From positions 96,001 to 160,000 of the IMG/VR virus record IMGVR_UViG_3300005264_000040: a stretch of 64,000 bases of DNA. One strand, 5' to 3'. This document shows positions 3,106 through 59,702 of this stretch, piece by piece. The stretch's first letter is position 1. The number at the start of each line of letters is the position of its first letter. A program made the position numbers and the translations under genes. The notes under the pieces were generated by a model. It saw only the letters and a list, made by a program, of their open reading frames with translations, did not search any database and had not been told where the DNA came from. This DNA comes from a virus.

Positions 3106-3127
3106 AAAGGCCTTTTGACAGGCCTTT
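3106..3127 (-). terminator. Hairpin terminator
   Basis: AAAGGCCT/AGGCCTTT stem at the end of 3126..5126, followed by T-rich sequence on the minus strand. Confidence 0.55.
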
Positions 3128-5126
3128 AAAGTAATCTTTTGTACCCTTTTTGTTTTAACTCTTGATAATCACGTCTATCATTAATAAAAATATATCCCAG
3201 TTCAACCATTATATGAATTTTTTCATATGGATTTTCGGAGGTTATAACTATTTTGTTTCGTTTTGAAAAGAAAGAAATCAAATTTCTTTTTAAAAATTCT
3301 TCAATGAGCTCGTCAAAATAGCCTATGAAAGCTATACTTCTTTTAGGTTCCAAACGTTCGACAAAAGGTAAATTAGTGTATATAGAATTAGTATTATTAG
3401 TTATAATAGTGAAAAGTGCTTTTTGTTCGCGAGATATTTTTGCATCTATCGTATTTGAAGCTTTGTTTTTTAAAATGAAATATGAATTTTCAATAGGAAT
3501 AATATTTGTGCTTTGAACAAAAATTCTTGTGTCTATCATAATACTTGTTTCTTCACCTAAAGCTTTAACTTGGCAATCAATAGATAAAGGTCGCATACCA
3601 TTCTCATTAACTACAATCATTCCTATATCTTTTTTTAATCTTACATAATTTGTATAATCTCTATGAATAGAATTATAAACATCAAAAGAATTTTGTTGTT
3701 TTAAAATAGGGATTGAATATCCTGAGATAAACAAAGAATCGTTTTGCGGGGATGCAATTTGGGTTTCAATCGCGTTTTGTATATAAATTTGAATTTGCGA
3801 AACATTATTTATAATTATGTTTTTTTGAACCTGCGGTGGCATTTGACTTATATTTGTATAATGAAAAATATAAACATTGGAATCATTTGCCTCTCCCATT
3901 AAATATGTTTCATCGGAATTTATAAATACACCATATGTTTGTGTTGGATTTTTTGGATACAAAGAATCAATAGAAGTATTATATAAAGGAGCTTCAAATA
4001 TTTTCATTCCTTCAGAAAGATTTAATCGTACTACTGTTAAAGTTTCAGAATTAACATCTTTTTTTATAAAAGTTAAAATATAAGCATTTCCCGTATACTC
4101 CAATTCTCCCAACGATGTATGTGTGCCAAAATGTTTTGGAAAATTCACATAATCAAAAGCATCTTCAATATGGATAGTTCTTAACAACCCTGAATATATA
4201 GTGTTGTTTTGGTACGAAATATCAATTTTATATATATATATTTTTTTATTAATAGCATCTCTTGTATATATATATAAAGTTCTATTTTCATAAACACCAA
4301 CAAAATTAGCATCAATCAATGTTCCTGTTATGTGTATGTTTTTTGAAAAATCAACTTGTCCCGTAACGGTATTAATAGCTTCAACATACCAACCATTAGC
4401 ATCAGTTCTAATTATTATATAATATTTAGGCTCAGTTCCTCCTACAGGATCAAAAAAGAAAGCTCTAATTACATAAGATATGTTAAAGTGGTTCAAAAGA
4501 GAAACGTTATTGTTACTAATTTCAAAAACATATAATTGTTGATAAAAAACAAATAAAAATTTATCTTTCAATAAATAGTTAGGAGCTCGCCAATATTGGT
4601 AATGCTTTAATACCTGAGAGGAGATTGTGTATAGACTACTTAAAGTACCGTTAAGAGGATTATCTTTAACATAATCATATTTATATAAAACACTAGAATA
4701 AGAATCACTCGTTGCAAGGATTAAAAAACTTTGATTTATATCATCATATTGTGGGGTTATATTTCGTGTAAATAATATTTTTCCATCTATTATTAAGTTA
4801 TGAAATCTTTTTGTTGTAGGGTTTGTAGGATATATAAATTCATTCGCAATACCATCTGTTGTTATAAAAAAACCATTTGAAGATAAGTTTGTTAAATACA
4901 ATGCGTTATGATCTTTATCATACAAAAAACTATATTTTGGATCAAACGGAAATACAGTAGAGGAATTAAAGGCAATTCCATATATACTATGGAATTGCTT
5001 GGCATAATAAAAAGGAGGATAATCTCTCAATGCATCTGCATAATAAGAAGATAAAGATTGATAACCTGTAAACGAATAATAATCATTAATATTGAATAAA
5101 TATAAATATTTTGACAAAACAGCCAT
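3126..5126 (-). CDS. Modular virion-surface or adhesin-like protein: beta-rich (propeller-like) head, short stalk, shared C-terminal module
   Basis: Y/I/N-rich beta-strand pattern. C-terminus IAFIGYFDELIEEFLKRNL...YIFINDRRDYQEL is shared with paralogues. Confidence 0.6.
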   Translation of the reverse strand: MAVLSKYLYLFNINDYYSFTGYQSLSSYYADALRDYPPFYYAKQFHSIYGIAFNSSTVFPFDPKYSFLYDKDHNALYLTNLSSNGFFITTDGIANEFIYPTNPTTKRFHNLIIDGKILFTRNITPQYDDINQSFLILATSDSYSSVLYKYDYVKDNPLNGTLSSLYTISSQVLKHYQYWRAPNYLLKDKFLFVFYQQLYVFEISNNNVSLLNHFNISYVIRAFFFDPVGGTEPKYYIIIRTDANGWYVEAINTVTGQVDFSKNIHITGTLIDANFVGVYENRTLYIYTRDAINKKIYIYKIDISYQNNTIYSGLLRTIHIEDAFDYVNFPKHFGTHTSLGELEYTGNAYILTFIKKDVNSETLTVVRLNLSEGMKIFEAPLYNTSIDSLYPKNPTQTYGVFINSDETYLMGEANDSNVYIFHYTNISQMPPQVQKNIIINNVSQIQIYIQNAIETQIASPQNDSLFISGYSIPILKQQNSFDVYNSIHRDYTNYVRLKKDIGMIVVNENGMRPLSIDCQVKALGEETSIMIDTRIFVQSTNIIPIENSYFILKNKASNTIDAKISREQKALFTIITNNTNSIYTNLPFVERLEPKRSIAFIGYFDELIEEFLKRNLISFFSKRNKIVITSENPYEKIHIMVELGYIFINDRRDYQELKQKGYKRLL

Positions 5127-5142: not shown

Positions 5143-6609
5143 TTATTCTATTTTTATATAAAGTTTTGAATACGGATCTGAATCGTTCTTTATTATTCTT
5201 CCATCGATTTTAAAGTAACTTACAAGATTTCTTTCTAAAAGAGCATAAGCAACTTTTTCTTGCCTCCCGGAAAGTGTAATTGTAGTATTAGATTCAATTT
5301 CATTTAAGATAGGAATGTTTTTATAAATAACATTTCTGTTATTTATAATAATGGTTTGATAATCATGTTTTTGTTTTAAATTTAAGTCTTCAACATTAAT
5401 ATCAGTTCTTATTCCATTTTGTATATTTTTTAAATGATATACAAAATTTTTATAAACTTCATTTACTGTTTCTCTTATTTGCAAAATTAATTCGTTTTCG
5501 TTTATAAACTTCGAAAATGAAAGAACTACATTTTTCCCCATTGAAACAGGCAAAACACTGATTTTTATTTCTTTTGTAGAAAAATCTATTATATATACAT
5601 GAAGTTGTTTTAATTTTATGTTGTATTTCAAAGCTAAAAGTTTTTTATTAGTTGGATTATAATAAAAGTCTTCTATAAAATCAGGATAAAAATTAGTTTT
5701 AGGTATTGGGTACATTTCTATTACAGTATTAGTTGTTTTATTTATATTCCAAAAGCAATATTCTGAAACTAAAATATTATTGGATACTATTTTCCCTTCA
5801 GTAATTAAATATAAATTAGAACCTTCTTCTTTAAAATTAACTACTTCTGAAATATCTATCTTATAATTTTGATAAACTTTTGGCACAATATTTGTTTGGT
5901 TAGTACCATTTTGTACTTTCCCTTTTTTTGTCAAATAGCGATTTTCTGACAATCTGTATATTATTTTGTCATCAACAAAAGTATTATTGGTTAAATCACT
6001 ATATCCATATACTACATTATTTTTATAATCTTTCAGCATATTCTTTTTATTTATTATTCTATAACGCAGTTTATCCTTGTATATCATAGTTTCTTTTTGA
6101 ATTACACTTGAATAAAATAGATAAGGTTCTATAAAAGGCAAAAAGAAGATTTTTCCTTTTGTGTTTTTGTATGTTGGATCTAATCCGAATCCTCTTACAA
6201 TACTTGTGATATCGACTTGAGAAGAATCATTAGGATTAACTAACACAACTTTATTTTCTTCTAAAATATTAGAATTTTTTGTATATACTATTTTTATTTC
6301 AGAATTATAATTTATAACACCACTCGGAATTAAATCATCGAAAGGTTGAAAAGTTTTTACTACATCACATGTATTAGGATCTAATTCAAAGATAAGAGAT
6401 TCACCTCTAATGTAATTTGTTCCTTTTACCTCATAGTAATTTCGAGAACTAGAAGGCAAAGTTGTTGTATTTACAACAAGATTGGAGCTAGTATCATATT
6501 TAATGATTTTATTGTCATAAAAAATACAAATTAGATTACCATTCATTTTCACCGCAATATTTTTTTCGGGTATTGTATTTTGAATTATTATATTACTTAA
6601 AACACTCAT
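5143..6609 (-). CDS. Paralogue of 3126..5126, with the shared C-terminal module truncated
   Basis: C-terminus TIIINNRNVIYKNIP..LLERNLVSYF..PYSKLYIKIE aligns with TIITNNTNSIYTNLP..FLKRNLISFF..PYEKIHIMVE. Confidence 0.6.
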   Translation of the reverse strand: MSVLSNIIIQNTIPEKNIAVKMNGNLICIFYDNKIIKYDTSSNLVVNTTTLPSSSRNYYEVKGTNYIRGESLIFELDPNTCDVVKTFQPFDDLIPSGVINYNSEIKIVYTKNSNILEENKVVLVNPNDSSQVDITSIVRGFGLDPTYKNTKGKIFFLPFIEPYLFYSSVIQKETMIYKDKLRYRIINKKNMLKDYKNNVVYGYSDLTNNTFVDDKIIYRLSENRYLTKKGKVQNGTNQTNIVPKVYQNYKIDISEVVNFKEEGSNLYLITEGKIVSNNILVSEYCFWNINKTTNTVIEMYPIPKTNFYPDFIEDFYYNPTNKKLLALKYNIKLKQLHVYIIDFSTKEIKISVLPVSMGKNVVLSFSKFINENELILQIRETVNEVYKNFVYHLKNIQNGIRTDINVEDLNLKQKHDYQTIIINNRNVIYKNIPILNEIESNTTITLSGRQEKVAYALLERNLVSYFKIDGRIIKNDSDPYSKLYIKIE

Positions 6610-26011: not shown

Positions 26012-26092
26012 ATAGGGGTGCGTTTGACGTTCAACGGTCCTATTATATATATATAATAGAGTCGTTGCCCGTCATTTGCACCCCTTTGAATA
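26012..26092 (+). repeat. 81-bp element, copy 1, containing a 72-bp quasi-palindrome with a TA-rich core
   Basis: Exact reverse complement of 59940..60020, checked base by base. Confidence 0.95.
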
Positions 26093-41694: not shown

Positions 41695-41786
41695 AGAAGT
41701 ACTCCACCTTTCTGCTTTTTTTTTATTATAACATATTTTGAATATAAAAATCAATATAAGAGGGGATTTTTCATCCCCTCGTGTTA

Positions 41787-44700: not shown

Positions 44701-47700
44701 GTTGCGGAATATTGTAATAAAATAACATCTGTATTGAGTTCTTTTATTGATTTTAACCATGTATAATATTCTGTTTCTTTTGTAAGCCATGTAGGATCTC
44801 CTACTATTTCTCCAGTAACATCATTTACACCGTCATAAACTTTATAACCATAACCTTCATTAAAGACATACGATGCTATTAAGTTAGTTGCATCTGCTGA
44901 AGCTGGTTCTACATCTGCTTCCCAAATTTTTAAATCATAAATTTTATCTAAGAAATAGTTATCAGGCACATATCCTATTAAGTTGATACTTACAGGTACA
45001 TCTGTTTCTGCTGTTGTTATATCTATTTCTGTGCCATCAATATATAAATGATATTCTCCATTAATTCTTTTTACTACTATATCATGCAATCCTACAGCTG
45101 GTGCATCATTCAATTGAATAAAGTCATTTTCTTGTGATTGATACTCTTCAGAAGGTGCTGCAGCTTCATTCTTTATAGATATTAAACCAGCAGCATTAGC
45201 CACAGAATTCCAATAAGCTTTTGCGTAAATTGTGTAATCTTTATTTGTTTTATCAATATTTTCTAAAGGAACTGTCAAAATATAATCAGAATTAAATTGA
45301 ATACCTTTGAAAGGTTGGAATGCTTGTACATATGGTCTAATAGCAATTGGCCCGTTATCTGTTGTAGAATAAACGGCGTTAATTATTTTAACTGCAGTTG
45401 CGTTTTGCGTAATTGCATCCGTTGTAAATATCAATTCATTATTTATATAAAAATTTGTTGAGCCATCAATTCTTTGTATTTTAAAAGAAGCCGATTTGTT
45501 TATATTAATATCATCATCTGGGAATATATCTACATTTGCTACTACAACGCCATCTGGATTAGTTGAAGTTACTTTATATACTTTTAATGAATCATAATTT
45601 CCATCATTAGAAGCATTATCTTCTGCTACCAGCAAATATTCTGTTCCATCTTTTAGTACAACTCCCAAACCTCTTACTGCATCAATTGAATCTGCCCATT
45701 CCATTTTAGGTAAATCTAATACAAAATCTTCAGTAAATTCATTGTCAAACTCATATATAATTCCTGCATTTGATAAATCGTTATAAGAAGCAGGTTTTTC
45801 ATCTATTTCTAAGAATGTATTATGATAAATAAGTTTTGCATTTGGCAATTCTTTGAAATATGTATTAAGAATAGTATCGTAAGCCCAATAATCAATATGC
45901 CTTTCATAAGTTGTAAAGGATTTATTTGTGTTAGGTTGAATCCAAAATTCATTTAATCCTGTTGTTAAATTTACTGGTCCTATATAAGTAGCATTATCTG
46001 TTACAACAGCAGGTACTACTGAACCGTCTGGTTTGACAACTGATATATTTGTCATATCATTAAGATTAAACCCAAATCTTTCTACGAAGAATTGTTCCGG
46101 TATTTTCAACATAACGCTTTCTCTATTAACAGGTGATTCTATTAAATATTTAGCTTTTAAAGGAGTTTGGATATCTTTGATTTTTCTATCATATTTCAAA
46201 GGATAATTTAAAGATTGAACATAAGCATCAATTGGTATTTCTTTGTTGTTATATTGTTTTGTCTGTCCTTCAACAAAAATAGAGGTTCCTAAATCTGTTG
46301 TATTTACAACAATATCAAAGAACTGTCTTGCATTAACTAATGGATAATAGGATAAAGAAATATTATTTTCTCTAACAGGCATTTGTATTAAATCTGAGAA
46401 ATCTGTACTGATTTCCAATGATACCGGAACATAAACCCTAACATCAAAAGGCTTTTTTGTATCTGTTGAAATATTAGTATCTATTCCGTTTAGTTTCATT
46501 TTATATTGAGAATAAGTACCATATGCATCATTTTCATAATACAACCAATCGAGAGTGTAATCTTTTGGATTTGTTATTGTTTCACTTAAATCATATTTAA
46601 ACACATATTCGTTGGTATCTGCATCTTTCATTACAAAATACAATATGCCATTTTCTTTTTCAAGACCCCATAGTAAATCAGTAGCAGTTTCAAATATTTC
46701 TATATTTACTGTATCCTCTATTATTTCATCGTTTAGATATATTACAGAAGTATCAATATTACCTCCATGACCCGAAGCAAAAAACCATCTAAGACGTTTA
46801 GGACTTGCAACTATATTCGTATTTTCTTCATTAGAAAAGGCGAGACCCGCTGCTATACTTAAATATTTTAATTCAACTAAACTATCTGCTTTATGATGAT
46901 GTTTGAAATAAAAATAATCTCCATTTTTAAAAGAAACTAAATTTAATTTATTTGAACCTTCGAATTTAAATGCAGCAGAAATATATTTATCTTCGTCAGA
47001 ATATATATAATTATTCCATACTGGATGTTCCATTTCAAAAATAGGTTCGTTTTTCCCATTAAACCCTATTTCAGTTATTAAAGGTTCAGCATTAGAATTG
47101 AAATCTGTTTTCCAATATCCTTCAGTGAAATTAACAAAAGTTTTGTTATGCACTAATAGTGGAGCAACTTCCGAAATTTCTTTAGATGTTGATGAATACC
47201 CATTCACATTAACATCTAAATTTTGGGTTGTTTGCATTCCTAAAGTATTAATCATTATATCAAAATATGGCTCACTTACATGTCTGGTAACTTTTAATGA
47301 TTGTATTTGATATCTATATAAATAAAAACCATAAGCTAAACGATTAAATCTTAAACCAATATGAGTAAGTTCAGAAACGCCTTCTGGAATTGTTTGCGTG
47401 TGAATCAAAACATCATAAATATAATAATAAGCAATTCTGTTTTCTATTTTTATTTTGAGTTTTAAATGTTGCCCTGATGGTATTACCGGTAAAGGTTCTC
47501 CTGTTTCAGGATTATCTATTTGTCTAAAATCAATTGTTTTAACAACACTATTACCAACAAAAGCTGCATAATCGAAACGTCCGTTATACATATAAGGTGA
47601 ATAAATACCAACACCAATACTTTTATCAAAGTTAAAATTATGATCGTCAGTTTGGTCGAAATATAGCTGTAACCCATCTTTGAAATAATAAAGGTAGCAG

Positions 47701-50231
47701 TATGTTCCTTCGTTTTTGAATAAAAGATCTAATTCAATTTCAGTAGAACCATATCTTCTTAAAGATATAGGTTCTTGAAGTTTAGTAATAGCAGCTTGTT
47801 CAGGCAAATCTCCTACTTGACTTATATTTTTCCCGGTTACATCATATTCTGTTTCGCCTACTTGTTCTACAAGCAAATGTCCATCATATGAATACCAATC
47901 TTTAGAAGCTTCAAAAACTTCTACTGTTTCATTTATACAATGTTGGTACATATTTGCTATTTCAAATGATTTATCAATTTCGCTTACAATTGAATTAATT
48001 GCATCTATGTTTATTTTCTTATTTATTCCGTAAATAGCTACAAAACACTCTATATTTTTAGTTTTTTCTGAAAATTGTGATAAATCATCCAATGATATAA
48101 ACATTGTATTACCATCACAACTATTAATTTGAGTTTCAATATTTTGTTGTTTTTTCCATGTTCCTATAAATTCTGAATCTATAGAAATATTCGAAAAATG
48201 TTTTATATAAGATTCAAAAAATAAACTTGTTTCTGAATACATTATATTTGTCAAATTTATAGGCAATTCATAAAGACCTCGGACTGTATGTAAAAAAACA
48301 TCTAATTCATTTTCTGTTTGACCTTTTTTTGTTGCAAAAGAATCAAGAGTTATATCCTGCACTGTAACACTTTTTATTGTTTCATATATATTTGTAGGAT
48401 AAGTTAAAAAGTTTTCATCAAATTCTTTAATTTCAAATCCATATTCGGAAACGGTTATAGGATGAACAGATGCCCCTCTTCCAGTATAAACATTTCTTCC
48501 AAAAGAAATTGCTGCCAAAAATTGGGTATTAGCAACATACGAAGTTAAATCTAAATCAAACACATAATCATCAACATACATTCTCCATTTATTTTCTTCA
48601 TCTAATTTTAACCCTATTTCTAAAGTATCTCCTTCTTTTTTTGACAATAAATGATTTATCAAAGGATGCGGACCGGACGCGTGAGCATCATATCCATATA
48701 TTTCATTGTTATTATAACTTACTCTAATTGAATCTAATTCATCACCATGTCCAGCCATCCACCAAAAATAAAGTCTAGGATATCCTGCGTAATTTGTAGT
48801 TCCGTCTGGAGCATCAAATGAAAATCCTATTCTTTCTTGATTGTCAAAGAAATTGTCTCTTGAAAAATCTTTATCTAAATATAATTTTACATAAACTTTC
48901 TTTAAATTAGAAACTAATAATTGATTATCGTTATGAGGACGAAAAGCAAAATTCCATCTTTCATCGTTCCACGCAAAATAAGTACTAGAAGCAAGTTGCA
49001 AATCTTCTTTTGCTAATTTGTTTTCTTTGAAAGTTTTTACAGTTCCAATAGTTGATTTAGTAAAAGTTGCTCCATTAAAAGTTTCAAGTTTATTTCTGAA
49101 GTCTGGCACTTTCTCTGTATGATGATAAATTTTCAAATAGCCATCTGAGTAAAATAATAATGTATCGTTATTTTCATCTATTGCTTGAAAATAAAAAGCT
49201 GAATTGTCCTCATTGCTATTAATAAAAGAAATATCCGAAAATGAAAATTCGGTAGGAGAAAACGTATTATTTACAGCGTCATATTTGTAAAGAGTATTAT
49301 CTAATCCGTAGTACAAAGTGTTATTTATAAAGGTTCCATGTTGAACTTCGCCAGTAAGGCTACGAGCCAACCAAACGCTTAAATCACTGTAATTAAGTAT
49401 CAAATATCCTTCGTTTAATAGAATAACTATTCTGTCATTTACTGTTTCTTGAAAAAGAATTTTATATACATAATTATTGCCTACAGTTTCTGTAGTAGGA
49501 TTATATTTTATAACTGTTATTTTTTCGTCACTAGTATAATTTAAAATTATAAATTCTCCTGTTTTAGTTTTTATCAATTCTCTACGGGGACTAGTAACAT
49601 TTGTAGAAGGATAATTTTGAGAAAATTTTTCTGTTACTGTCCCTGAACTATAATCAATTTTTAAAAGTTTTACACTCTTCGAAACTTCATCAGAAAAAGC
49701 AAAATAAGCTATATTGTTTTCTAAAACCGGAGTTCTATAAGATATACGATAAACTGAATTTATATTGTATGGAACGGTAATCTTCGAACTTTCATCTATT
49801 GTATGGTCTGATAACAAATCATACAATTCAAATCCATTTTCAGTTATAGCAATACCTTTGTTATTTAATTTGTCAATAGTAAAAAAAGTGGAAGAATTAA
49901 AACTCAAAGTTTGTATTACATTTACCTGAGAATTATTCCAGTCATACTCCAAAATAAATACTTCATAAAATTTATTAGAAGAATCATCTTTTTCATATAC
50001 AAATGCTAAAAATCTTGAATCTCCTAAACTTATAGCGTTTTGAAGATATAAAGCAGTTAAATTAGTTGCTTGAAGCGGCAGAGAAAAGGTTATTTTATTG
50101 TTCGTTAAAGGATCTACTAAATAAAACTCATTTGTAGTTCCAAGGTAATTTCGAACTAATATATACGAATCAATTTGGAAAATATAAGTGTTCGAAAGGT
50201 TCGAATCATAATATTTGGCAATCATACACAA
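41787..50231 (-). CDS. Giant (2814 aa) modular fibre/adhesin: propeller-like head, several lectin/LamG-like domains, long Q-repeat stalk, C-terminal module
   Basis: LamG-like GLHDIVVKRINGEYHLYIDG..IYDLKIW and Q-repeats over about 42130..44716. Promoter at 50266..50274. Confidence 0.65.
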   Translation of the reverse strand: MCMIAKYYDSNLSNTYIFQIDSYILVRNYLGTTNEFYLVDPLTNNKITFSLPLQATNLTALYLQNAISLGDSRFLAFVYEKDDSSNKFYEVFILEYDWNNSQVNVIQTLSFNSSTFFTIDKLNNKGIAITENGFELYDLLSDHTIDESSKITVPYNINSVYRISYRTPVLENNIAYFAFSDEVSKSVKLLKIDYSSGTVTEKFSQNYPSTNVTSPRRELIKTKTGEFIILNYTSDEKITVIKYNPTTETVGNNYVYKILFQETVNDRIVILLNEGYLILNYSDLSVWLARSLTGEVQHGTFINNTLYYGLDNTLYKYDAVNNTFSPTEFSFSDISFINSNEDNSAFYFQAIDENNDTLLFYSDGYLKIYHHTEKVPDFRNKLETFNGATFTKSTIGTVKTFKENKLAKEDLQLASSTYFAWNDERWNFAFRPHNDNQLLVSNLKKVYVKLYLDKDFSRDNFFDNQERIGFSFDAPDGTTNYAGYPRLYFWWMAGHGDELDSIRVSYNNNEIYGYDAHASGPHPLINHLLSKKEGDTLEIGLKLDEENKWRMYVDDYVFDLDLTSYVANTQFLAAISFGRNVYTGRGASVHPITVSEYGFEIKEFDENFLTYPTNIYETIKSVTVQDITLDSFATKKGQTENELDVFLHTVRGLYELPINLTNIMYSETSLFFESYIKHFSNISIDSEFIGTWKKQQNIETQINSCDGNTMFISLDDLSQFSEKTKNIECFVAIYGINKKINIDAINSIVSEIDKSFEIANMYQHCINETVEVFEASKDWYSYDGHLLVEQVGETEYDVTGKNISQVGDLPEQAAITKLQEPISLRRYGSTEIELDLLFKNEGTYCYLYYFKDGLQLYFDQTDDHNFNFDKSIGVGIYSPYMYNGRFDYAAFVGNSVVKTIDFRQIDNPETGEPLPVIPSGQHLKLKIKIENRIAYYYIYDVLIHTQTIPEGVSELTHIGLRFNRLAYGFYLYRYQIQSLKVTRHVSEPYFDIMINTLGMQTTQNLDVNVNGYSSTSKEISEVAPLLVHNKTFVNFTEGYWKTDFNSNAEPLITEIGFNGKNEPIFEMEHPVWNNYIYSDEDKYISAAFKFEGSNKLNLVSFKNGDYFYFKHHHKADSLVELKYLSIAAGLAFSNEENTNIVASPKRLRWFFASGHGGNIDTSVIYLNDEIIEDTVNIEIFETATDLLWGLEKENGILYFVMKDADTNEYVFKYDLSETITNPKDYTLDWLYYENDAYGTYSQYKMKLNGIDTNISTDTKKPFDVRVYVPVSLEISTDFSDLIQMPVRENNISLSYYPLVNARQFFDIVVNTTDLGTSIFVEGQTKQYNNKEIPIDAYVQSLNYPLKYDRKIKDIQTPLKAKYLIESPVNRESVMLKIPEQFFVERFGFNLNDMTNISVVKPDGSVVPAVVTDNATYIGPVNLTTGLNEFWIQPNTNKSFTTYERHIDYWAYDTILNTYFKELPNAKLIYHNTFLEIDEKPASYNDLSNAGIIYEFDNEFTEDFVLDLPKMEWADSIDAVRGLGVVLKDGTEYLLVAEDNASNDGNYDSLKVYKVTSTNPDGVVVANVDIFPDDDININKSASFKIQRIDGSTNFYINNELIFTTDAITQNATAVKIINAVYSTTDNGPIAIRPYVQAFQPFKGIQFNSDYILTVPLENIDKTNKDYTIYAKAYWNSVANAAGLISIKNEAAAPSEEYQSQENDFIQLNDAPAVGLHDIVVKRINGEYHLYIDGTEIDITTAETDVPVSINLIGYVPDNYFLDKIYDLKIWEADVEPASADATNLIASYVFNEGYGYKVYDGVNDVTGEIVGDPTWLTKETEYYTWLKSIKELNTDVILLQYSATNNLAESAVLQTTVLSEAVQTNALQYSLLNSNIDLADMLQYTKILNQLTEYTLQHSMKSSEVALLLKLYSSEFVDFDVVMNQYNQLKNDLDTISLQVGHVPLTVEDSNTLQRSEYTKFFDVMMMPTEQYSLYIGNYTLHVGLSSEIDVDVFNSQYSIYDLQVAAETLQHTLEKLDFESLTKQFSEYLLSVYSEMKTYSHTDINIDNSVMVSGLSSSLLLDNEILQHSLAQTNIESSDLWHQNIEYSIFFNATVTSYELFNLFIDTKSKITGLSDTKDIYVDFLQYTITEQIMELEMYQNLRRSVHLIANNLISSDTDNILESIINGYVLQQNLIESYYVTLLKNQIENATMQAITSIKDIVAKEYVSHSLETPFNVQNLIHTALDAMDLEVTNSVFSLLEKTIETEMLQFTELTNSIESTEYASLLYSTIFDTNIEAETNESVRINLQLVQAGILSSISGDIYNSIWSKESQDITSELYSYIGQKFDIEAIPVHLMGTNIEFDSVHYIYGIQTTQDIDTIELQWSKYTLSTEAEMYVSHLLESQFDINILDYTLISNIFEAEIVAATQVLEYPLDVFNYIYGLSSSINVETENTQYSKTENIIESHIIVINPAKISDIVSEMFQKSSINNNFDVYGMILDITKQIELESTAYILGLKSEIDIDNIIKQTSVYDKAIFNYFLSYGTLMKYIESIVFNLAIASSRYLDTQVFVFGEESTKFISSINSIFLEEHQNIDIYNLSFELLENIILNKTLQNSIYTNIFDIDILSYSQYSLDLDIYNNINSFKQLLIEGYSLADIDHQKLITCQQLPEKSIDVDLDTYIATNDTKINRLDAFMNQFYKQNTNAKFMSNLRQLMQADKPIDSILSGANTAISVTIFKNNANAQLELTINGKKLLIEAGQTVKVYGWWKEVMTNYSTIITDVHMNDNHLFHSDFGWLEVKFTEDLTTINDSFDNETIVYMRDNLIPYYRG

Positions 50232-50333: not shown

Positions 50334-53300
50334 TTACCACATAGTTCCTTCTTTTATTTCATTGATATAATCAGAATAATCAAGTTCTCTTGTGTCTCTT
50401 TCATCGTTTATTATAGTTGTGACATACCCATAAATAACATCTATTTTCGCATATTTATTAATATAAATTTCTTTTCCGTTATCTACATATTTTATTTTTC
50501 TTATATATTGTCTTACGTTAGGATATGCTAAGAAGAAATCTTCCCATTTCAACATAGAAGATACTCCCCAACGCGGAACTCCTATTACATATTTTCCAGC
50601 AACCATTCTTACATCTTTAGAACTGTGATTGAGGAATAGAGTAGCTTTTTTCTTTATAACTTTTACTACAGTCACATTAATTCCTTTCATTATTCTATGG
50701 TGAGTTAAAATGTTTGCTAATTCCATTGGATGTTCTTTTTTACTATGATGCATTTCCATTCCTTCAATGAGATTTTCGGTTTTTATACCACAATGCTTAG
50801 GAACACTTTCTATACTATTTTCAGAAACAGAAGTTTGGAAAATGCTATTTTCTAAAACATTAGAATGAGTTACAATTATCATTAATGGTGCATTTTCGCT
50901 TAATTCAATATTTTGTTTTACGTAGGCAGATATCAAAGAATATTCAATAGGATGTTTTGCATTCCTTATTAACCATAATTGCCATTCAAAATCTTTTTCG
51001 TCTTCAGAGTGCTGTAATACATATCCATCAAAAGTTTTAGATAAATGTCCAGCCATTACAACTCTTGAACTTAACCAATTTGCAGTTTGAATATCATCCC
51101 AAAGTACTACACTTTCAATGTTTCTTTCAGAAGAAATACCTTGCCAATACAATGGAGCATTTAGAATATTCCTTTTTCTAATTGCATATTGAGTTGCAAT
51201 AGGTAAATCTATATCTATTTGCGTACTGAAATGTGACCATATTATCATATCAATTGGAATGTCTGCTTTTATGTAAGTATTGAGGTTTGAAATAGTTAAA
51301 TATGCATTATTAGGATTATTAGGCCCTGAATCGGTTATAGTTATTTCTACACCTTTTAAATCCATAATTTTATATTCTGGTTTGTTGTATTCTATTAGTT
51401 GTGCATGCGTTATAGAATTACTATTTTCATCCCTTAAAGTGTAATTAAATATTACCCCATTGCTTAAATGTTTCAAAGTTAGTTTTACATGTATGTTTTG
51501 AGAAGTGGAAGCAAATCCATTCAAATTAGTTGTAGTTCTGTTTTTGGATAATTGGTCGTATTCTAGGATTGGTTTATAGGAAGTTCCAAAAGGAATAAAG
51601 TAACGCAAAATCCCATCAAACCAACTTATAATTTGATTTATACTATAATCAATATTTAAATCAGCACTTACAAGAGGAACTTCCTTATTCCAGGATAACC
51701 TTGTAATCATATGGAATGGAGCATCCAATTGTCCAAATGGCACTTCAGAATGTATATCAAATTCTAATGTAAATTGCAAATTCTTTAATGGACCGCTTAA
51801 TGGAGTTTCTTTATATAATGTCAAATCTTCTCTATCAGTAAAATCTAGAGAAATCGCATTTCCATTTATTATTACAGGTCCAGTAGCATTCCAGTTTTCA
51901 TAATCATTTAGTTTGTGTATTGTAAAATAATTGCAAACTACATGTTGATACAGATCAGCAAACTCAAATGTGTTTTCTTTCGAAACAGGAATAACTCGTA
52001 TTAAATCTAACCATGGTTGTGGTTCTGGTTTTATATCTGTAATCTTCACCATACAGTCAATCATATTTGCATTTGAAGAAACACGTTGGATTAAATTAGC
52101 AAACTCCATATTTTTTTCTTTATGTTGCAGCCAAGACACATGAGATATTATAGTAATTTCGTTCGATAATCCAAAGTGTTTTGGAGTTGAATCAAGTTTT
52201 GTCATTTGGGTTGAACGTTGCAATTGATTAGCTAATATAACATATAAAAATCTTTCAACTAAATCAGCTGCATAAATATCCATATCTATTTTTCTTTCAA
52301 TATTTGGCCACAAACGATTTGCTTCAAATGACAATTCTTTTTTGTGTAAGTGCCAAATATCCGAAGAAACAATGTTTAAATCCCGTGTCATAAAGTATGT
52401 TCTAACAGCATCTATTATTGGTGGTTTATTATAACCTGCGTAAAAATTCATATTTTTTAAATAAATAGGTTGTAGGCTTGTTAGATTTTTTGCGTCAAAT
52501 TCTATTCCAAATTCTACTATATCTATAAATTTCTTTTTAAAGAAATTATCAGTTGATAAATCGGTTCCTACACTGTTTGATGTATTTAAAGAATCATCAA
52601 TTCTATATCTATAACCAACAATATTTTTTAATCTGAAATCAGTTTTTATACCTATAGTATGCGAATAATTAGTAGTACCCCATGTTCTAATCCTATTACC
52701 ATTAGGATCATCAATATACATACTTGCTCCATAATAAGTACTTAAACTGTTTATACCATATTTATAAACATAACCTTCTGAATCTTTAAAATAAACATAC
52801 ATAGCTGAAGCGTCAGTAAAAGGCATATAATAAGTAACATCAAACATTATCCTGTGAAATTTAAGAATAGAAAATCTTTTATACATAGGAAATTTGATAT
52901 ACCCTTTTGTAAAACCATTTTCCAAATCTACTTTTATTTCTAAACCATCTTCGGTATAATTATAAATTAATCCTTCAATTGTAGAACTGGAAGGTAGTTG
53001 TTGCTGTATCAAATCCAAATTCATTTCTTCGTAATCATTTGGTTTTACTGAATATAAAACCTCTAAATAACAATCAATAGGTACCTGTTGTGTTAGTGCT
53101 TGGTATGTTTTTATTAGCCCCGTAGGGATATCAATAGAACGTATGATTGAAGGTCTTTGAATCATGACATCTATTGTGTTTGGGTTTTGGATTTGAATGG
53201 AAAATTCTTTTAACCATATAGTATCTCTATCAATATGACTAATCCAAATCTGTACATTTTTTAAATTCGCGCTTCCTATTACTTCATAAGGCATTTCTCC

Positions 53301-56300
53301 TATCTTTATTCCATTTACATATGCTTCATATATTTTGTTGGAATATTTTACTAAAAATACTAATTCCTCTGAATTTTGATCATTTATAACCATATCTAAT
53401 TCTGGTAATTGTGTTGGGAGATTATAATCAGTTCTCCAACCTACAATACCAATTTCGTTAGGTGGATAACTCCATTGAAATGATGTACGAGCAATATTTA
53501 ACCCCATTTTTTTTATTGAAATATTATGTAGATCTGGTTCAAATCCAACATAGAAAGCTGTATCATTTGAAAAACCTAAGAAAACTCCAAATTCAAAATC
53601 AGGATTATTCATTAATTTCTCTTTATCGATTCTGAAAACAGTTACGTATTTTATTTCAGAATCAAAATCATTCATTGGATTTATCTGTGCAGAAACTGGC
53701 AAGTTATATTTCCATGAACCTCTAAAATTAAAATAATACCAAACTAACATATAGTCCCCATGGGATACATGCTTTATTTTTTCAAAAGTATTTAATGTTG
53801 GATCTATATTAAAAATACAGATAGAACCATCACTTTCGTCCTTATAATAATTAATATTTGGAGTTAATTTACTCCATGGATAAAAAGCAAATGAATCTAT
53901 AGGAGTTCCAAAATATATTTCAGCATCAAAAAAAGGTGCCCCATTTACAATATTCAAATATATTGGATGACAATAAAACATATCTAAAGAATGTGTTCCT
54001 ACTTGGCTAACATAAGCTTCCATTACATTTTCAGTTTTAGAATATTGAGAAACATCTATATCAAGGACTTCAAGGTTCAGCCATGCTACTATATTTTCCA
54101 TAGTTTTTAAAATAATGCCTATAACAGCAAATGTAGATATGTAACCAGCAAAAGAGAAAGATTGAACTTTTATATTTGTAAGTTCATTAAATTGATAAAA
54201 ACCATCAGTTAAATCTCCTTCAATTCTAAGATTATTTACATACATAAATATACGGCCATCTTCTTCTTTTTTTAAATGGAGATAAATAGAATCTCCGTCT
54301 TTTAAAAAATTTAAATAATCAAGCACATCTTGCGCATTCGTTATTTCAATGTCTGTATATACTCCATCTTTCCTATAATATAAACGTTGATTTACTATAA
54401 GAGGATTCCCATCTTGCACATTAGTAGTTTCAAAAGTATATACAATAATATTGTCATAATAAAGCATATAAGTTCCATTAGGTTTCCAATTTGGATTATC
54501 AAATTCATATATTATACCTATTTTTTTTATATCGTTATTTTTATAATTTTTCAATTGATAAACAAAACCGAATTCTTTGAATTTTTCAACTGTTAATTTT
54601 TTTGGCAATGTATAATTATTATTGCTATAATAATCGTATGTCCATGAAATAATATTTGGATACATATAAATCTTTTCGAATAAAGCATTTTCATTAAAAT
54701 ATGTTCCATAATAATGATTTTCAATTGGGGCATGACCCCACATAAAGAAATGAGTTTCATTTACTTTAGGGAATTCTGTTAATCTTTGTTTCAAATTAGA
54801 ATTTTTTGTCTCGTTTTGTGTAAAATGCACTACTTTACAATCAATTGGTATTTCTTCTTTGTTTCCTGAAATCATTATCGAACTTTCAAAATATATATCG
54901 TTTATTTCAAGTTTAACTCCAAATTTATAATCGGCAGAACGTGAATACCTTACTGAAGTATATGCTATACCATAAATTCTATCTGTATCATCTACATAAG
55001 TAGTAATATCAAAAGATGCATACTCATTTTGTTCATCTATTGATAAAATTTTGAAATAATATTTTTCGTTTATTTTTGATATTTTCATTACTACTTGCTC
55101 GTCGTACAAAGGATCGAACCAAAAAGTTTCATCTCCTATTGATATAAATCTTCCCGAAAAATAAGGTTTGTTATAAGAATTTCCATTGTTCAATGTAAAT
55201 GCAATGTGCTTTCCTTCCCATGGATTATCAAAATTATCACTTAGCAAAAACCATAACCTTATATAAGTATATGTGTTTGAATTATAATTTTCATGATTGT
55301 AATAAATTTTAAAGTTTTCTAGTGGTATCAAAAAATTAAATTTATGGGCAAATATAATTTTATTTTTAGACCAAGAATAAGGCCATGCAGCTGGTCTTAT
55401 ATTTGAAAATTGGACTTCATATTCATTGTAATAATCAATGTAATTTTCATAATCACTCCTGTAATCGGTTTTTGGAGTAGCTGCCATTTTTCCTACAGTT
55501 GTTTGTTGGAACATTTCAGGTAATATAAATGTATTGCTCATCCTTGGCATAACGATACTTTTTAAGGAACCTCTATCTTTAAATTTTACATACAATTTTG
55601 TTGTTTGTGCGGAAAAATCATAACGTGATTCATATCCTATTGTAGTTATGTAATTATATTGTTCTAAAGCATCATGAATTTCAAATTCTTTGAAAAATAT
55701 TCCATCTACATGATAATACCATCTTTCATATTCATCTCTTTTTATACCTATTCTGAACGTATCCCCTGCATGCAATGACATTAAATGCTGATTAATAGGA
55801 TGATCCGGATTATCATAAAAAATAGAATCAGTATAAACATTTCTAGTTGCAATTATCCTATCTACAGGTTTTTCCTGGTTGTTGTTTGTAGTACCAATTT
55901 CAAATTCAAAATATTGTGGTGGAACGCTATCTGTATATTTATTAAAATTATCGCAATCAAATGTAATTCCTAGCAAACTCATTTGCCAATTTTCATAAGT
56001 GAAATCTTCATTGATTTGAATTTCTAAACTTACTTCTTCTAAATCTTTTAATATTAATGGAGTATGATTCCAACCATCTTGCCATGTTCTTAACATAAAA
56101 TCATACCATGACCAAAGACTTCTATCCCCATCTTTTTCTATTATTAATGTTTGAACAAACTCCGAATTACTTATTCTACTCCATGTAGGGGCTAACTCAA
56201 AATAATGCACTGTACCGTTATAATATCCTCCATAATCTCTATAATCTCCCGCAAAAAAACTTGTAGCTATAGGAGTATATACATTAGCTAAATTTGGCAT
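50334..56300 (-). CDS. Giant (1988 aa) modular fibre/adhesin with lectin-like domains separated by stalk segments
   Basis: Domains homologous to those in the 2814-aa protein. C-terminus YVTTIINDERDTREL. Confidence 0.65.
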   Translation of the reverse strand: MPNLANVYTPIATSFFAGDYRDYGGYYNGTVHYFELAPTWSRISNSEFVQTLIIEKDGDRSLWSWYDFMLRTWQDGWNHTPLILKDLEEVSLEIQINEDFTYENWQMSLLGITFDCDNFNKYTDSVPPQYFEFEIGTTNNNQEKPVDRIIATRNVYTDSIFYDNPDHPINQHLMSLHAGDTFRIGIKRDEYERWYYHVDGIFFKEFEIHDALEQYNYITTIGYESRYDFSAQTTKLYVKFKDRGSLKSIVMPRMSNTFILPEMFQQTTVGKMAATPKTDYRSDYENYIDYYNEYEVQFSNIRPAAWPYSWSKNKIIFAHKFNFLIPLENFKIYYNHENYNSNTYTYIRLWFLLSDNFDNPWEGKHIAFTLNNGNSYNKPYFSGRFISIGDETFWFDPLYDEQVVMKISKINEKYYFKILSIDEQNEYASFDITTYVDDTDRIYGIAYTSVRYSRSADYKFGVKLEINDIYFESSIMISGNKEEIPIDCKVVHFTQNETKNSNLKQRLTEFPKVNETHFFMWGHAPIENHYYGTYFNENALFEKIYMYPNIISWTYDYYSNNNYTLPKKLTVEKFKEFGFVYQLKNYKNNDIKKIGIIYEFDNPNWKPNGTYMLYYDNIIVYTFETTNVQDGNPLIVNQRLYYRKDGVYTDIEITNAQDVLDYLNFLKDGDSIYLHLKKEEDGRIFMYVNNLRIEGDLTDGFYQFNELTNIKVQSFSFAGYISTFAVIGIILKTMENIVAWLNLEVLDIDVSQYSKTENVMEAYVSQVGTHSLDMFYCHPIYLNIVNGAPFFDAEIYFGTPIDSFAFYPWSKLTPNINYYKDESDGSICIFNIDPTLNTFEKIKHVSHGDYMLVWYYFNFRGSWKYNLPVSAQINPMNDFDSEIKYVTVFRIDKEKLMNNPDFEFGVFLGFSNDTAFYVGFEPDLHNISIKKMGLNIARTSFQWSYPPNEIGIVGWRTDYNLPTQLPELDMVINDQNSEELVFLVKYSNKIYEAYVNGIKIGEMPYEVIGSANLKNVQIWISHIDRDTIWLKEFSIQIQNPNTIDVMIQRPSIIRSIDIPTGLIKTYQALTQQVPIDCYLEVLYSVKPNDYEEMNLDLIQQQLPSSSTIEGLIYNYTEDGLEIKVDLENGFTKGYIKFPMYKRFSILKFHRIMFDVTYYMPFTDASAMYVYFKDSEGYVYKYGINSLSTYYGASMYIDDPNGNRIRTWGTTNYSHTIGIKTDFRLKNIVGYRYRIDDSLNTSNSVGTDLSTDNFFKKKFIDIVEFGIEFDAKNLTSLQPIYLKNMNFYAGYNKPPIIDAVRTYFMTRDLNIVSSDIWHLHKKELSFEANRLWPNIERKIDMDIYAADLVERFLYVILANQLQRSTQMTKLDSTPKHFGLSNEITIISHVSWLQHKEKNMEFANLIQRVSSNANMIDCMVKITDIKPEPQPWLDLIRVIPVSKENTFEFADLYQHVVCNYFTIHKLNDYENWNATGPVIINGNAISLDFTDREDLTLYKETPLSGPLKNLQFTLEFDIHSEVPFGQLDAPFHMITRLSWNKEVPLVSADLNIDYSINQIISWFDGILRYFIPFGTSYKPILEYDQLSKNRTTTNLNGFASTSQNIHVKLTLKHLSNGVIFNYTLRDENSNSITHAQLIEYNKPEYKIMDLKGVEITITDSGPNNPNNAYLTISNLNTYIKADIPIDMIIWSHFSTQIDIDLPIATQYAIRKRNILNAPLYWQGISSERNIESVVLWDDIQTANWLSSRVVMAGHLSKTFDGYVLQHSEDEKDFEWQLWLIRNAKHPIEYSLISAYVKQNIELSENAPLMIIVTHSNVLENSIFQTSVSENSIESVPKHCGIKTENLIEGMEMHHSKKEHPMELANILTHHRIMKGINVTVVKVIKKKATLFLNHSSKDVRMVAGKYVIGVPRWGVSSMLKWEDFFLAYPNVRQYIRKIKYVDNGKEIYINKYAKIDVIYGYVTTIINDERDTRELDYSDYINEIKEGTMW

Positions 56301-56306
56301 ATTCTA

Positions 56307-59300
56307 TCACTCCCAATGTAAAGAATTATCATTTTGAATTTCATCTAAATCTCTTGGATCATTAATTACAACTTTTGCATAAGTATAATAAATATCTAAT
56401 ACACCTTCTGCGTTTTGATATGTTACATTGCCATTTTTAACAATACGTCTTACTATATCTTTATCTAATAAATTTTGTACAAGTTTTTCATCTATTTTGT
56501 ACAAATAAGCCATACTATAAGAATCTAAATTTTCTTCCATTCCAGGTAATGTAATGATTTTATCTGAATAATTCACAAATTTTAAAGCTTCTACTTCTAA
56601 TACCAAAACGACTTGTGAATCTATTTCATTTTTTTCTCTGTAGAAAATATGAACATCAGAATAAAGTTTCCTATAACTCATTGTAATTGGAATTGTTGTA
56701 CTTATTATTTCATTTTGCAATTCTTTCTGAATCGCATATTTTGCATCTATAATTTGAGGTAATTTGTGACTAAGTATAAGTTGTAATTCTACATTGTTTT
56801 GCAATATTCCATAATTACTGTTAAATGTGTTTATGTTTATATCATCAATTATCTGAGATTTAGAATAAACACTTAATAATTTCATTTTTGGATTATCGTT
56901 TATAATCTGAGAATTTATTGTGATTGTTTTTTTGATTTCATATTGAAGTTCCATTAATATATTTTTACTTTTGTTTATAGTTTTTAATATTGTTAAAGCT
57001 TTAATTTGGTTATTCCTAAACAAATGATAAATAGGTCTTTCTACAACTGTAGTATAAACATTTTTTTCTACGAGAGTTACTATTTTATTATGTGCTTCCA
57101 AAATTATACTTCTTAATTTTGAAGTTGCATATATTGCGTTTATTGTGTTTGATTTCATAATTTCTTTTAAATATAAATCCATTTGCAGATTGATCATCTT
57201 TCTCATATTCAAAATAATATCTGAGCAAAATTCAACTGCTGTTTTTGAATAAATAGAATTATTTGTTCCTATTCCTTTTGTGTCTAGGATTCCTAACAAT
57301 TTAGAATAAGAACCAACTAACATTGTATCTTTCGCTATATATTGAGTTTCCAAATAAAGCTTTTTTCTTTCACTATGATAAATTGTGCATTCTATGTTTT
57401 TTTCATGTTTGACGATTTGTTTCACTCTGCTATTAAAACTTAAAAATTTGGTTTTTAAGAAGAATAGATATAATTGATAATACTTAGGTAATTCCTTCAA
57501 AGGAGTTGTTCTTATTAAGAATTCCGGATAATCTCTAACATCGTTATAAATAGCCCACATTGAACCATGTATAAAATAAATTTCCTTATTTGGATTATAA
57601 CGAGAAAATTCAAACCAAGCTGGAGTTTCTACTCCATATACAAAAGAATTTGTTGTGTATTCTTGCTCAAAAAGCACATCAGTTCCTTCAAATTGCAAAA
57701 CATGATAAGCTGGAATAGCAACTTTCTTTCCTCTTAAATTTACAGTTATCGTTGAAGAAGTTGGATTTACAACGTTTGTTGAAGGAATATATTGAATTTC
57801 ATAGGCTACAGCCCCTATTTCTATTTTATTCACAAAAGTAGATTTAGCTATTGCTTTTACATTTTTATAACTAACAGTGTTAAATAGCAAATGTGTATTT
57901 AAATTATTATTTGATGAAAAGGTACCACACAAAATCCCATTAAGTTCTAAATTCCATTTTGCTGTAATATTTTCATATATATCCATGCCTAATTCTTGTG
58001 AAACTACTTTAAAAATATCAGCTAATATAGGAGCTTTTGGTCGTGGTAATATTATCATATCAGATTCAAAATAATTAGATATTTTAGATACTATAGAAGT
58101 ATAGTAAATATCAATAAACGCTTTTTGTAAAGGTGAAACTTTTTTTAACCAAGAATAAATTCCTCTATAATTATGATCGTCATAAAAAGCTACTTCAGAT
58201 ACTATCGTTTTCTTTTTTAAGAAAGTTAATGAAGTAGCAACATCCAAGTTGTTTTCTTGGGTTATTATCCTTGCTATTTTAATATCTAAAAATTTCTGCA
58301 TTCTATAAAACTTTGATATTATTGCTCCAATAAAAATAGAAACATCTTCTATTTTAGAAACTCCAACTTTTAAATCTTTTTTTGTTGATAAATTAGGCCA
58401 CAAAACATATGCTGTGAAATCTATATTTGGTATGTATTTAGGAGCAAAAATATAAACACTAGCTGGATGTGCTTTGTCTGTATCTGTTCCTACAGGTATG
58501 ATTGCATTAGGATAGAAAATTTGATACCCTTTTAAAAATACAATATTTCCCCAAGTATCACCATGTCCTAAATAAATCAAACCTTCCATAAACTTGCTAT
58601 ATGAATGCAAAGAGTCATAAATTTCAAAAGAATCATACCCAGAAAAAGCTAATAATTTATAAGGATCAAACCATGTTCCGTAAAAATAAGAATAATTATA
58701 TTTAAATGGTTCGGATATAGGAACTATTCTTTCTCCATCATCTGACGGTTTTACATATATTGTAGAACGTCTTGTTCCGGATTTTGCAAAAACAGGCAGA
58801 AAATTCGGATTATATTGTACTATTGCTGGTTGTGGGAAAAAACCTTGCATGTAATCAGGCAAGAAACCAAATAAATCAGTCATTGATTTTTTATCTTTTA
58901 CTGTTATTTCCTTTGTGCTTAAATCTATATTCAAAAGATATACAAATCTATCTGAAGTTAAAATTAACCTTGTATTACCTACCCAAGCACCTACATAAGG
59001 TGTATTTAAAATTAAAGCAAAACCGTAATCATCTATTACGGTTGCAGGTCCCATATCATATCCAGTAACATGCCAATCATTAAAGTCTTGCCCAAAACTT
59101 ATATATCTTATTTCTTTTGAAGTATAGATAGAGTTAGATGTTGCATTTATAATCAACATCTTATTATTAGGAGAAAAAACTATAGGAGAACTTACCATGT
59201 AAGGTGGAAACCCACCTATTAACCTTACTTCTCCTGTTCCATTATTAATTTCTATCAAATAAGTTTCTGGAGCTAACCTGTTGAAAAAATACATATACCT

Positions 59301-59702
59301 TTCGTTAGAAAAGAAAGGCACAGGGATTAAACCATTTGGAATATCTATCTCAAATGGAAAGTCAAATCTGTAAGGAGTAAAAGATGTTAATGTTGGATCT
59401 TGAATTTCATCAAGTCTCAACAACGTAATATGATCAGAAGCTATTTCTAAAGTACCAGATACATTATTTCCTGAAACTTGTCCAGGAAAGTTTCCAATTC
59501 TATAAAAGTTTAAGTTCCTATCTTTTATGTAATCATATAATAAAGCATTAGGTTGTATCTCAATTTGGAATGTTCCAGTGCCAGCATATGGATACAACCA
59601 CATTTTATTTAAATCATCACTGCTTCTAACTATACCTATATTTTCTTTCCCGGATACAAAATGGATACGGTATCCACCAAAATTATATATCATATCCGCC
59701 AC
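56307..59702 (-). CDS. Modular fibre/adhesin (1131 aa): propeller-like head, stalk, C-terminal module
   Basis: C-terminus YAKVVINDPRDLDEIQ. Promoter TGATATAAT at 59725..59733. Confidence 0.65.
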   Translation of the reverse strand: MADMIYNFGGYRIHFVSGKENIGIVRSSDDLNKMWLYPYAGTGTFQIEIQPNALLYDYIKDRNLNFYRIGNFPGQVSGNNVSGTLEIASDHITLLRLDEIQDPTLTSFTPYRFDFPFEIDIPNGLIPVPFFSNERYMYFFNRLAPETYLIEINNGTGEVRLIGGFPPYMVSSPIVFSPNNKMLIINATSNSIYTSKEIRYISFGQDFNDWHVTGYDMGPATVIDDYGFALILNTPYVGAWVGNTRLILTSDRFVYLLNIDLSTKEITVKDKKSMTDLFGFLPDYMQGFFPQPAIVQYNPNFLPVFAKSGTRRSTIYVKPSDDGERIVPISEPFKYNYSYFYGTWFDPYKLLAFSGYDSFEIYDSLHSYSKFMEGLIYLGHGDTWGNIVFLKGYQIFYPNAIIPVGTDTDKAHPASVYIFAPKYIPNIDFTAYVLWPNLSTKKDLKVGVSKIEDVSIFIGAIISKFYRMQKFLDIKIARIITQENNLDVATSLTFLKKKTIVSEVAFYDDHNYRGIYSWLKKVSPLQKAFIDIYYTSIVSKISNYFESDMIILPRPKAPILADIFKVVSQELGMDIYENITAKWNLELNGILCGTFSSNNNLNTHLLFNTVSYKNVKAIAKSTFVNKIEIGAVAYEIQYIPSTNVVNPTSSTITVNLRGKKVAIPAYHVLQFEGTDVLFEQEYTTNSFVYGVETPAWFEFSRYNPNKEIYFIHGSMWAIYNDVRDYPEFLIRTTPLKELPKYYQLYLFFLKTKFLSFNSRVKQIVKHEKNIECTIYHSERKKLYLETQYIAKDTMLVGSYSKLLGILDTKGIGTNNSIYSKTAVEFCSDIILNMRKMINLQMDLYLKEIMKSNTINAIYATSKLRSIILEAHNKIVTLVEKNVYTTVVERPIYHLFRNNQIKALTILKTINKSKNILMELQYEIKKTITINSQIINDNPKMKLLSVYSKSQIIDDININTFNSNYGILQNNVELQLILSHKLPQIIDAKYAIQKELQNEIISTTIPITMSYRKLYSDVHIFYREKNEIDSQVVLVLEVEALKFVNYSDKIITLPGMEENLDSYSMAYLYKIDEKLVQNLLDKDIVRRIVKNGNVTYQNAEGVLDIYYTYAKVVINDPRDLDEIQNDNSLHWE

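Follow-up and report, generated by a model that had tools for sequence, protein, structure and literature searches.

Eleven otherwise unlike proteins of an uncultured phage share a C-terminal module, a possible assembly and docking domain of virion appendages

The uncultured phage behind the IMG/VR record IMGVR_UViG_3300005264_000040, a contig of 177,768 bp with about 28% G+C, encodes a family of proteins that share a C-terminal module. The window analysed here is a stretch of 64,000 nucleotides, bases 96001-160000 of this contig, in which an original prediction had recognised seven open reading frames (ORFs), here called A to G; coordinates are those of the window unless genome positions are named. 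All seven were confirmed in position on the minus strand. A (3126..5126; 666 amino acids, aa) carries its module at 3129-3476, and B (5143..6609; 488 aa) ends in a short form of it at 5146-5430. C (22256..23143), the 3' part of a split gene for a 1191-aa protein, encodes stalk units and a module at 22268-22600; the 5' part of that gene, likewise on the minus strand, is an 887-aa ORF (23055..25718) whose N-terminus is Cys/aromatic-rich and whose 14-residue repeats run downwards from about 24416. D (41269..41694; 141 aa) is of unconfirmed membership. E (41787..50225; 2812 aa) combines a stalk at about 42360-44714 with a module at 41802-42140, F (50334..56300; 1988 aa) has its module at 50337-50699, and G (56307..59693; 1128 aa) contains both a C-terminal module at 56310-56651 (4e-15) and a weaker internal copy at 57483-57830. 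The three loci first recognised do not exhaust the family, as four further members are encoded upstream of the window, at genome 80683-91609, and a fifth is encoded downstream of it on the plus strand, at genome 174470-174984. The family comprises 11 proteins with 12 module copies (12 proteins if D is counted), of 1298, 513, 1110, 680, 666, 488, 1191, 2812, 1988, 1128 and 171 aa; together the 11 proteins amount to 12,045 aa, and their 36.1 kb make up about 20% of the genome. In all members the module ends at most about 30 residues from the stop codon.

By sequence comparison, the common C-terminal module is real and its recurrence in 11 proteins lies well beyond chance. Pairwise BLASTP of the last 150 residues connects A with B (5e-13), C (5e-5) and G (1e-3), and G with F (1e-6) and C (2e-3); E and D match only each other (2e-4). 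Profile searches covered all 755 six-frame ORFs of the genome, with reversed ORFs as the control. The profile built from A, B, C, F and G found the four upstream proteins of 513 aa (3e-14), 680 aa (6e-11), 1110 aa (6e-6) and 1298 aa (6e-6), in each case at the extreme C-terminus. The resulting nine-member profile added three matches on which it had not been trained, namely E (2.4e-6), the internal copy of G and, close to the right end of the genome, a small ORF (5.6e-6; 171 aa counted from its ATG). Leave-one-out profiles recover all 11 proteins with E-values of 7e-6 to 1e-25 (6e-20 for A, 7e-6 for B, 8e-7 for C, 1e-6 for E, 2e-10 for F and 2e-17 for G), each omitted member at its C-terminus, and the internal copy of G is recovered at 2e-4 when both G copies are excluded from the profile; the best values among reversed ORFs were 0.04-0.3. 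The proposed likeness of the C-termini is thereby borne out, and so is the proposed family of seven as far as A, B, C, E, F and G are concerned, although C proved to be a gene fragment, D could not be confirmed and five members had been missed.

A cluster look-up identified a 184,070-bp assembly of the same phage that encodes the 1191-aa protein intact (P0017), as residues 1-876 of the 887-aa ORF, 41 extra stalk-repeat residues and the 274-residue C ORF. C is no gene of its own, and hence no standalone member as had been assumed: the 1191-aa gene is split in the 177,768-bp contig only, and its division into two ORFs therefore points to a frame-shifting deletion of about 115 nucleotides within the repeat region (23055-23143). 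E has 2812 aa here versus 2823 aa in the second assembly, with 33 nucleotides missing in frame at about residue 248, in its head. The remaining members are identical in both assemblies, and the short ending of B is thus genuine.

The similarity of D is at noise level, and its membership, included in the original prediction, is not confirmed: D reaches an E-value of 6.8 against the family profile, a probability of 11% in hhalign (E 0.0027 over 32 columns, in the correct register) and 0.03 against the module of E in BLASTP. D nevertheless looks like a real, separate gene, because a G+C-rich hairpin followed by a T-rich stretch resembles an intrinsic terminator directly 3' of the E stop codon (41745-41786, minus strand), because D is preceded by a promoter-like TGTTATAAT and a Shine-Dalgarno site of its own, and because it is identical in the second assembly. 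It lies directly downstream of E, where a Tfa-type fibre assembly chaperone would be expected, and has no match in Pfam or PHROGs.

The alignment of the 12 module copies displays a T-[I/L]-x-x-N-x-[S/T] motif, a conserved Gly, an N-P/x-x-G turn and a terminal I-N-D-x-R-D-x-x-E-[L/I] motif. The last of these, already noted in the original prediction, is the best conserved stretch. In the 11-sequence alignment its N and D do not vary, and invariance or near-invariance is limited to four columns, N, N, D and D, with no conserved Ser or Lys. The copies are 16-31% identical to the module of A. An AlphaFold2 model of the latter, obtained from the paralog alignment, has a predicted local distance difference test score (pLDDT) of 82.6, above 90 in the core, and a predicted template modelling score (pTM) of 0.70. 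It depicts a compact alpha/beta fold with seven strands and two helices, in which beta-1 and beta-7 are each 12 residues long, and on this model the constant domain is an independently folding unit of about 110-140 residues. The terminal motif runs from the end of beta-7 into the first turns of the last helix. This helix is initiated by the best conserved residues N99, D100, R102, D103 and E106 (numbered in the module of A), all polar or charged; D100, D103 and E106 would fall on one of its faces. Given this character, an interaction or ion-binding site fits the motif better than a hydrophobic core. B indeed stops before it, right after strand beta-7 and without the IND..D..E helix, and the motif is degenerate in the 171-aa protein, which is little more than a module. 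A longer shared region upstream was considered, as the alignments of some pairs extend over 270-390 residues (22-23% identity), and was rejected since the 11-sequence alignment shows no common pre-module domain.

The module is an orphan domain family with no detectable relative and no matching known fold, consistent with the initial impression that it belongs to no named family. Pfam and PHROGs gave no credible match for any member, and PDB sequence searches with the profiles of the module and of the domain common to E and F returned nothing below an E-value of 0.03. The 12-module profile, run against 1.84e9 representative proteins, retrieved proteins of this phage only, with two module stretches in G, and word-indexed searches with A and with residues 60-1060 of F returned only the queries themselves. 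At the level of structure, the best Foldseek matches of the module model (E 0.15 in PDB, 0.067 in BFVD) and the best VIA-align match (Z 3.9, to PII-like/CutA folds) were treated as noise, and ESM Atlas offered no named neighbour, its matches at 0.91 being unnamed viral clusters that have few features in common with the module. An absent or weak match of a predicted model does not prove the fold new. Among cultured phages, Salmonella phage Arash provides the best match to the large terminase TerL by both E-value and bit score (30% identity, E 4e-60). A six-frame search of Arash for the module found nothing, though it was run without a positive control; tblastn of G against cultured phages gave no match, and a TerL-based search of IMG/VR found no relative. 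Synteny with Arash around the RNA polymerase genes was judged too loose for transferring the virion proteomics of Arash.

The N-terminal parts are unrelated by BLASTP and very different in length, as had been noticed, except for a domain of about 170 residues common to E and F (6e-8). It occurs three times in E (48402-48959, 47277-47789 and 46512-47039) and four times in F (55551-56078, 54891-55403, 54081-54608 and 53151-53648), all on the minus strand, and these seven copies are themselves the training sequences of its profile. The lists of fold matches for this domain are nearly all concanavalin A-like (galectins, LamG/neurexin, GH16, legume lectins, SPRY), which makes a lectin-like, concanavalin A-like beta-sandwich a lead. 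None of these matches reaches significance (the best Foldseek E is 0.027 and the best VIA Z is 4.7), and they come from a weak AlphaFold2 model (pLDDT 59.5, pTM 0.64); the earlier label of lectin-like domains is likewise a lead. A comparable lead points to a beta-propeller-like head in A, as first suggested: for residues 5 to 430 or so, the ESM Atlas model aligns over about 300 residues with propellers of the pyrroloquinoline quinone type (PQQ/BamB-like) at template modelling scores of 0.64-0.70 depending on the target, but the pLDDT of that model is only 0.39, and Pfam returned no match for the region.

Stalks built of a 14-residue repeat, Q-[Y/H/W]-[S/T]...[I/M]-[E/D]...[M/L], were traced with a position matrix whose background is 5 units per 50,000 shuffled residues. 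The 1191-aa protein contains 29 units and E contains 17 to 27, few were found in F and the 1298-aa protein, and none by the same matrix in A, B or the 513-, 680- and 171-aa members. Just before its module, the 1110-aa member carries a 19-residue Cys-Pro-Pro variant, Q-[Y/H]-A-T-E-[D/E]-x-C-P-P-[I/V] (genome 86146-86600, minus strand). By inspection, the stalk is not a heptad coiled coil. The head, stalk and anchor plan originally envisaged for the whole family applies to two to four members and is not family-wide, because the repeat stalk is confined to these.

Members of the family are encoded in morphogenesis operons, alongside the genes of the terminase, of the portal and of the RNA polymerase of the phage. 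One long minus-strand operon, of which B is the first gene, runs B, A, a 299-aa gene, the RNA polymerase, the genes of the 680-, 1110-, 513- and 1298-aa members, a 343-aa gene and TerL (just upstream of the window; phrog_675, 3e-66). A second minus-strand series consists of the 1191-aa gene, a 228-aa gene and the portal gene (19632-21572, a weak library match), and a third of G, F and E followed by the terminator and D. The 171-aa gene is monocistronic on the plus strand, with a promoter-like TGTTATAAT, a strong ribosome-binding site and a terminator. Other recognisable genes of the window are those of a sigma factor (15197-15931), a glucosaminidase (18355-19137) and a Baseplate_J / gp6-like protein (29570-31150), and a thymidylate kinase gene was recognised in or near the window. 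Adjoining the D to G cluster, a 375-aa protein (39318-40445, minus strand) contains a DUF6582 domain (Pfam E 3.4e-7). Elsewhere, a 3202-aa ORF (genome 163864-173472, minus strand) is a giant orphan with neither a Pfam match nor the module.

The nonamer TGTTATAAT, which resembles an extended -10 element, occurs in 18 genomic copies versus about 12 expected, and 12 of them sit 24-45 nucleotides 5' of a Shine-Dalgarno site and start codon, a placement that makes it likely to be a promoter element of the phage. In the window it stands upstream of 6609(-), 6710(+), 11865(-), 25718(-), 41123(-) and 41694(-); at the same spacing it precedes B, the 1191-aa gene, D and the 1110-aa gene, and also the thymidylate kinase gene, so that it marks no timing class and is not specific to late genes. 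A quasi-palindrome of 81 bp, built around a (TA)n core, is found in identical form at 26012-26092 and 59940-60020, in the divergent intergenic regions at the heads of the operon of the 1191-aa gene and of the G-F-E operon, respectively. It was rejected as a family-specific regulator, since BLASTN located three further copies near genome positions 3298, 43484 and 62234, and these five copies across the genome identify it as a dispersed element.

What could so many unlike proteins have in common at their C-termini? The reading that we tentatively favour is that the module is the constant assembly and docking module of virion appendages, and its carriers are probably a lineage-specific paralog family of late, virion-surface appendage proteins. 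Each chain would expose a variable N-terminal binding part, be it propeller-like, a lectin-like array or Cys/aromatic-rich, sometimes at the tip of a 14-residue-repeat stalk, while the constant C-terminal domain would gather the chains and dock them. Docking would proceed through the N-D-x-R-D-x-x-E stripe at the junction of beta-7 and alpha-2, onto a common partner, either a further module copy or a protein of the virion. Compared with classical tail fibres, the polarity would be reversed, with the constant C-terminal end proximal and the variable N-terminal end distal. We infer virion location, oligomerisation, docking and polarity alike from several lines of evidence. Points in favour of this reading are the constant C-terminal position of the module and its independent fold, the operons shared with packaging and structural genes, the head-fold leads towards beta-propellers and galectin/concanavalin A-like domains, and the precedent of giant phages such as SPN3US (PMC5694885), which package an RNA polymerase and possess large families of virion paralogs. 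It is also favoured because no shared or adaptor-like N-terminus is present and the propeller-like region of A begins at about residue 5, because conservation is concentrated in a polar or acidic motif and not in the core, and because the near-headless 171-aa member and the internal copy in G are hard to explain by the folding of a shaft alone.

Several points weigh against this assembly and docking role. Nearly all known fibres attach through their N-termini, and where a conserved C-terminal domain adjoins a repeat shaft, it usually serves to nucleate folding or oligomerisation. An identity of 16-31% to the module of A is low for a shared docking surface, and B, the 171-aa protein and D, if related at all, are devoid of the conserved motif. 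The head folds are low-confidence leads, the module models are of monomers only, and the searches found no relatives for a comparison of co-variation or synteny. A bolder version, which appears unlikely as a whole, would make the module a universal self-binding plug: eleven adhesins would dock C-terminus-first in common sockets, the internal copy of G would be a branch point, and the motif-less forms (the 171-aa protein, B and perhaps D) would, as caps or competitors, control which adhesins are displayed and in what number, the whole constituting a combinatorial fibre system of reverse polarity with a fold not seen before.

A second reading, the main rival and somewhat unlikely in our judgement, sees in the module a C-terminal nucleus for folding or oligomerisation in the style of a foldon, a fibre knob or an intramolecular chaperone. 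It would bring the chains into register and start the folding of the region before it, might be cleaved later, and would have no part in virion attachment. In several members stalk-type units lead straight into the module, their last P-[I/L]-x-[L/M] unit even entering beta-1, and the order of propeller head, stalk and shared C-terminal domain is said to mirror that of endosialidase tailspikes. Moreover, the low identity among paralogous modules would keep oligomers unmixed, the 12-residue strands beta-1 and beta-7 could build inter-subunit sheets, and N-terminal attachment is the general rule for fibres. Against this stand the majority of members, which have no recognisable repeat stalk, the 171-aa protein that has nothing to fold, and N-termini that, unrelated as they are, begin with globular heads and leave no attachment domain. 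The Peptidase_S74 model (PF13884) has no match at E <= 0.1 or 0.01 in the 11 proteins, and the invariant Ser-Lys pair of its self-cleavage is not seen in the module alignment. The core of that chaperone domain is mainly helical, whereas the module is predicted to be beta-rich; the chaperone-domain fold is not among the Foldseek and VIA matches listed for the module model, although absence from such lists is not exclusion. The module is also far larger than a 27-residue foldon. Folding and docking roles are mutually compatible and not exclusive.

Third, the members could be internal head proteins or ejected cargo, the module serving as a signal for incorporation into the prohead, by analogy with the head paralog families of phiKZ-like or SPN3US-like phages that likewise package an RNA polymerase; we regard this as quite unlikely. 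Six members flank the single-chain RNA polymerase gene in the operon that ends at the terminase, and another is next to the portal gene. SPN3US provides a parallel in its 20-member head paralog family and in the C-terminal prohead-targeting region inferred for its protease (PMC5694885). In addition, a conserved Glu followed by variable tails recalls prohead-protease cleavage after Glu; D-x-x-E was considered as such a cleavage site and rejected, given that the P3 position before the conserved Glu varies. The RNA polymerase itself is without the module (family profile E 0.11), no match to PF12699 (the phiKZ/SPN3US inner-head paralog family A) was found and no prohead protease was detected in the phage. 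Beta-rich heads of propeller- or lectin-like type and long repeat stalks would, furthermore, be atypical of ejected proteins.

Fourth, the proteins might not belong to the virion at all, and could instead be released adhesins or act in the host envelope or inside the cell, with the module as an oligomerisation or localisation domain. The evidence for a virion location of the family is indirect, the small genes around that of the 171-aa member are close to a candidate anti-CRISPR ring nuclease, and TGTTATAAT, present also before the thymidylate kinase gene, does not single out late genes. This explanation is quite unlikely in view of the 10 of 11 genes whose operons also contain terminase, portal or other structural-type genes, and of the 36 kb of coding capacity, unusual for a non-structural family. 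Finally, chance or the compositional bias of an AT-rich genome, which the abundance of N, I, K and Y in these proteins and the noise-level similarity of D might suggest, is scarcely credible as the origin of the similarity, being refuted for the 11 proteins by leave-one-out values of 7e-6 to 1e-25 versus at least 0.04 for reversed ORFs, by the consistent C-terminal position and by a confident AlphaFold2 model from the paralog alignment alone, with D as the sole exception.

The family accounts for about 20% of an otherwise unannotated, orphan 180-kb genome and offers a confidently modelled domain, within the bounds of a single phage lineage and a wholly inferred function. If the assembly and docking reading is true, it would reveal a second way of building multi-adhesin phage particles, with a polarity opposite to that of the usual N-terminal anchors, and the module would become a candidate scaffold, compact in size, for the phage display of foreign binding domains. 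Paralogous virion families and shared terminal modules of fibres are already known kinds; what is new here is a domain family without detectable relatives, a constant end that is C-terminal and an unusual share of the genome.

Among these known kinds is the Peptidase_S74 chaperone domain of endosialidase tailspikes and T5 L-shaped fibres, a C-terminal domain shared by otherwise unrelated fibre and spike proteins. In endosialidases, this C-terminal chaperone domain reportedly comes after a beta-propeller head and a repeat stalk. The present module differs by its sequence, by the missing Ser/Lys pair and by its beta-rich model, and it also occurs on stalkless members and on the headless 171-aa protein. 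The foldon of T4 fibritin and the knobs of adenovirus and reovirus are likewise C-terminal domains right after a repeat shaft, which set the register of the chains. The foldon is a 27-residue beta-hairpin trimerisation unit at the end of a coiled coil and the knobs are receptor-binding beta-sandwiches, in contrast to an alpha/beta module of 110-140 residues with fold-search Z-scores of at most 3.9.

Three further systems offer comparisons. SPN3US possesses lineage-specific virion paralogs (its families A, B and C, with up to 20 members and largely unknown function) and carries RNA polymerase in its virion (PMC5694885). The likeness lies in large lineage-specific paralog families alongside an RNA polymerase; there is no sequence relation, nor a match to PF12699, and presence in the virion pertains to SPN3US, the present family being known from its genes alone. 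T4 Hoc resembles the proposed arrangement in that a C-terminal constant part would anchor projecting variable N-terminal domains and that a short polar motif near the C-terminus is best conserved. The C-terminal domain of Hoc is said to bind the capsid and to contain a conserved short motif. Hoc is encoded by a single gene, in contrast to the present family with its 11 members of at most 2812 aa; the two have no sequence relation, Pfam and PHROGs detected neither its immunoglobulin-like N-terminal domains nor its capsid-binding motif (the motif here being I-N-D-x-R-D-x-x-E), and capsid binding is a property of Hoc. A further parallel is offered by tailspikes 1-4 of CBA120 and the appendages of the Klebsiella jumbo phage PhiK64-1, in which a single large myovirus combines constant docking parts with interchangeable binding parts in many paralogous or modular proteins. 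PhiK64-1 reportedly has 11 depolymerases with shared anchor domains as in the CBA120 tailspikes. The constant part is N-terminal and of known, T4 gp10-like families in these phages, whereas here it is C-terminal and without a known-fold match; in CBA120 and PhiK64-1 an internal docking domain can create branches, and the internal module copy of G could do likewise.

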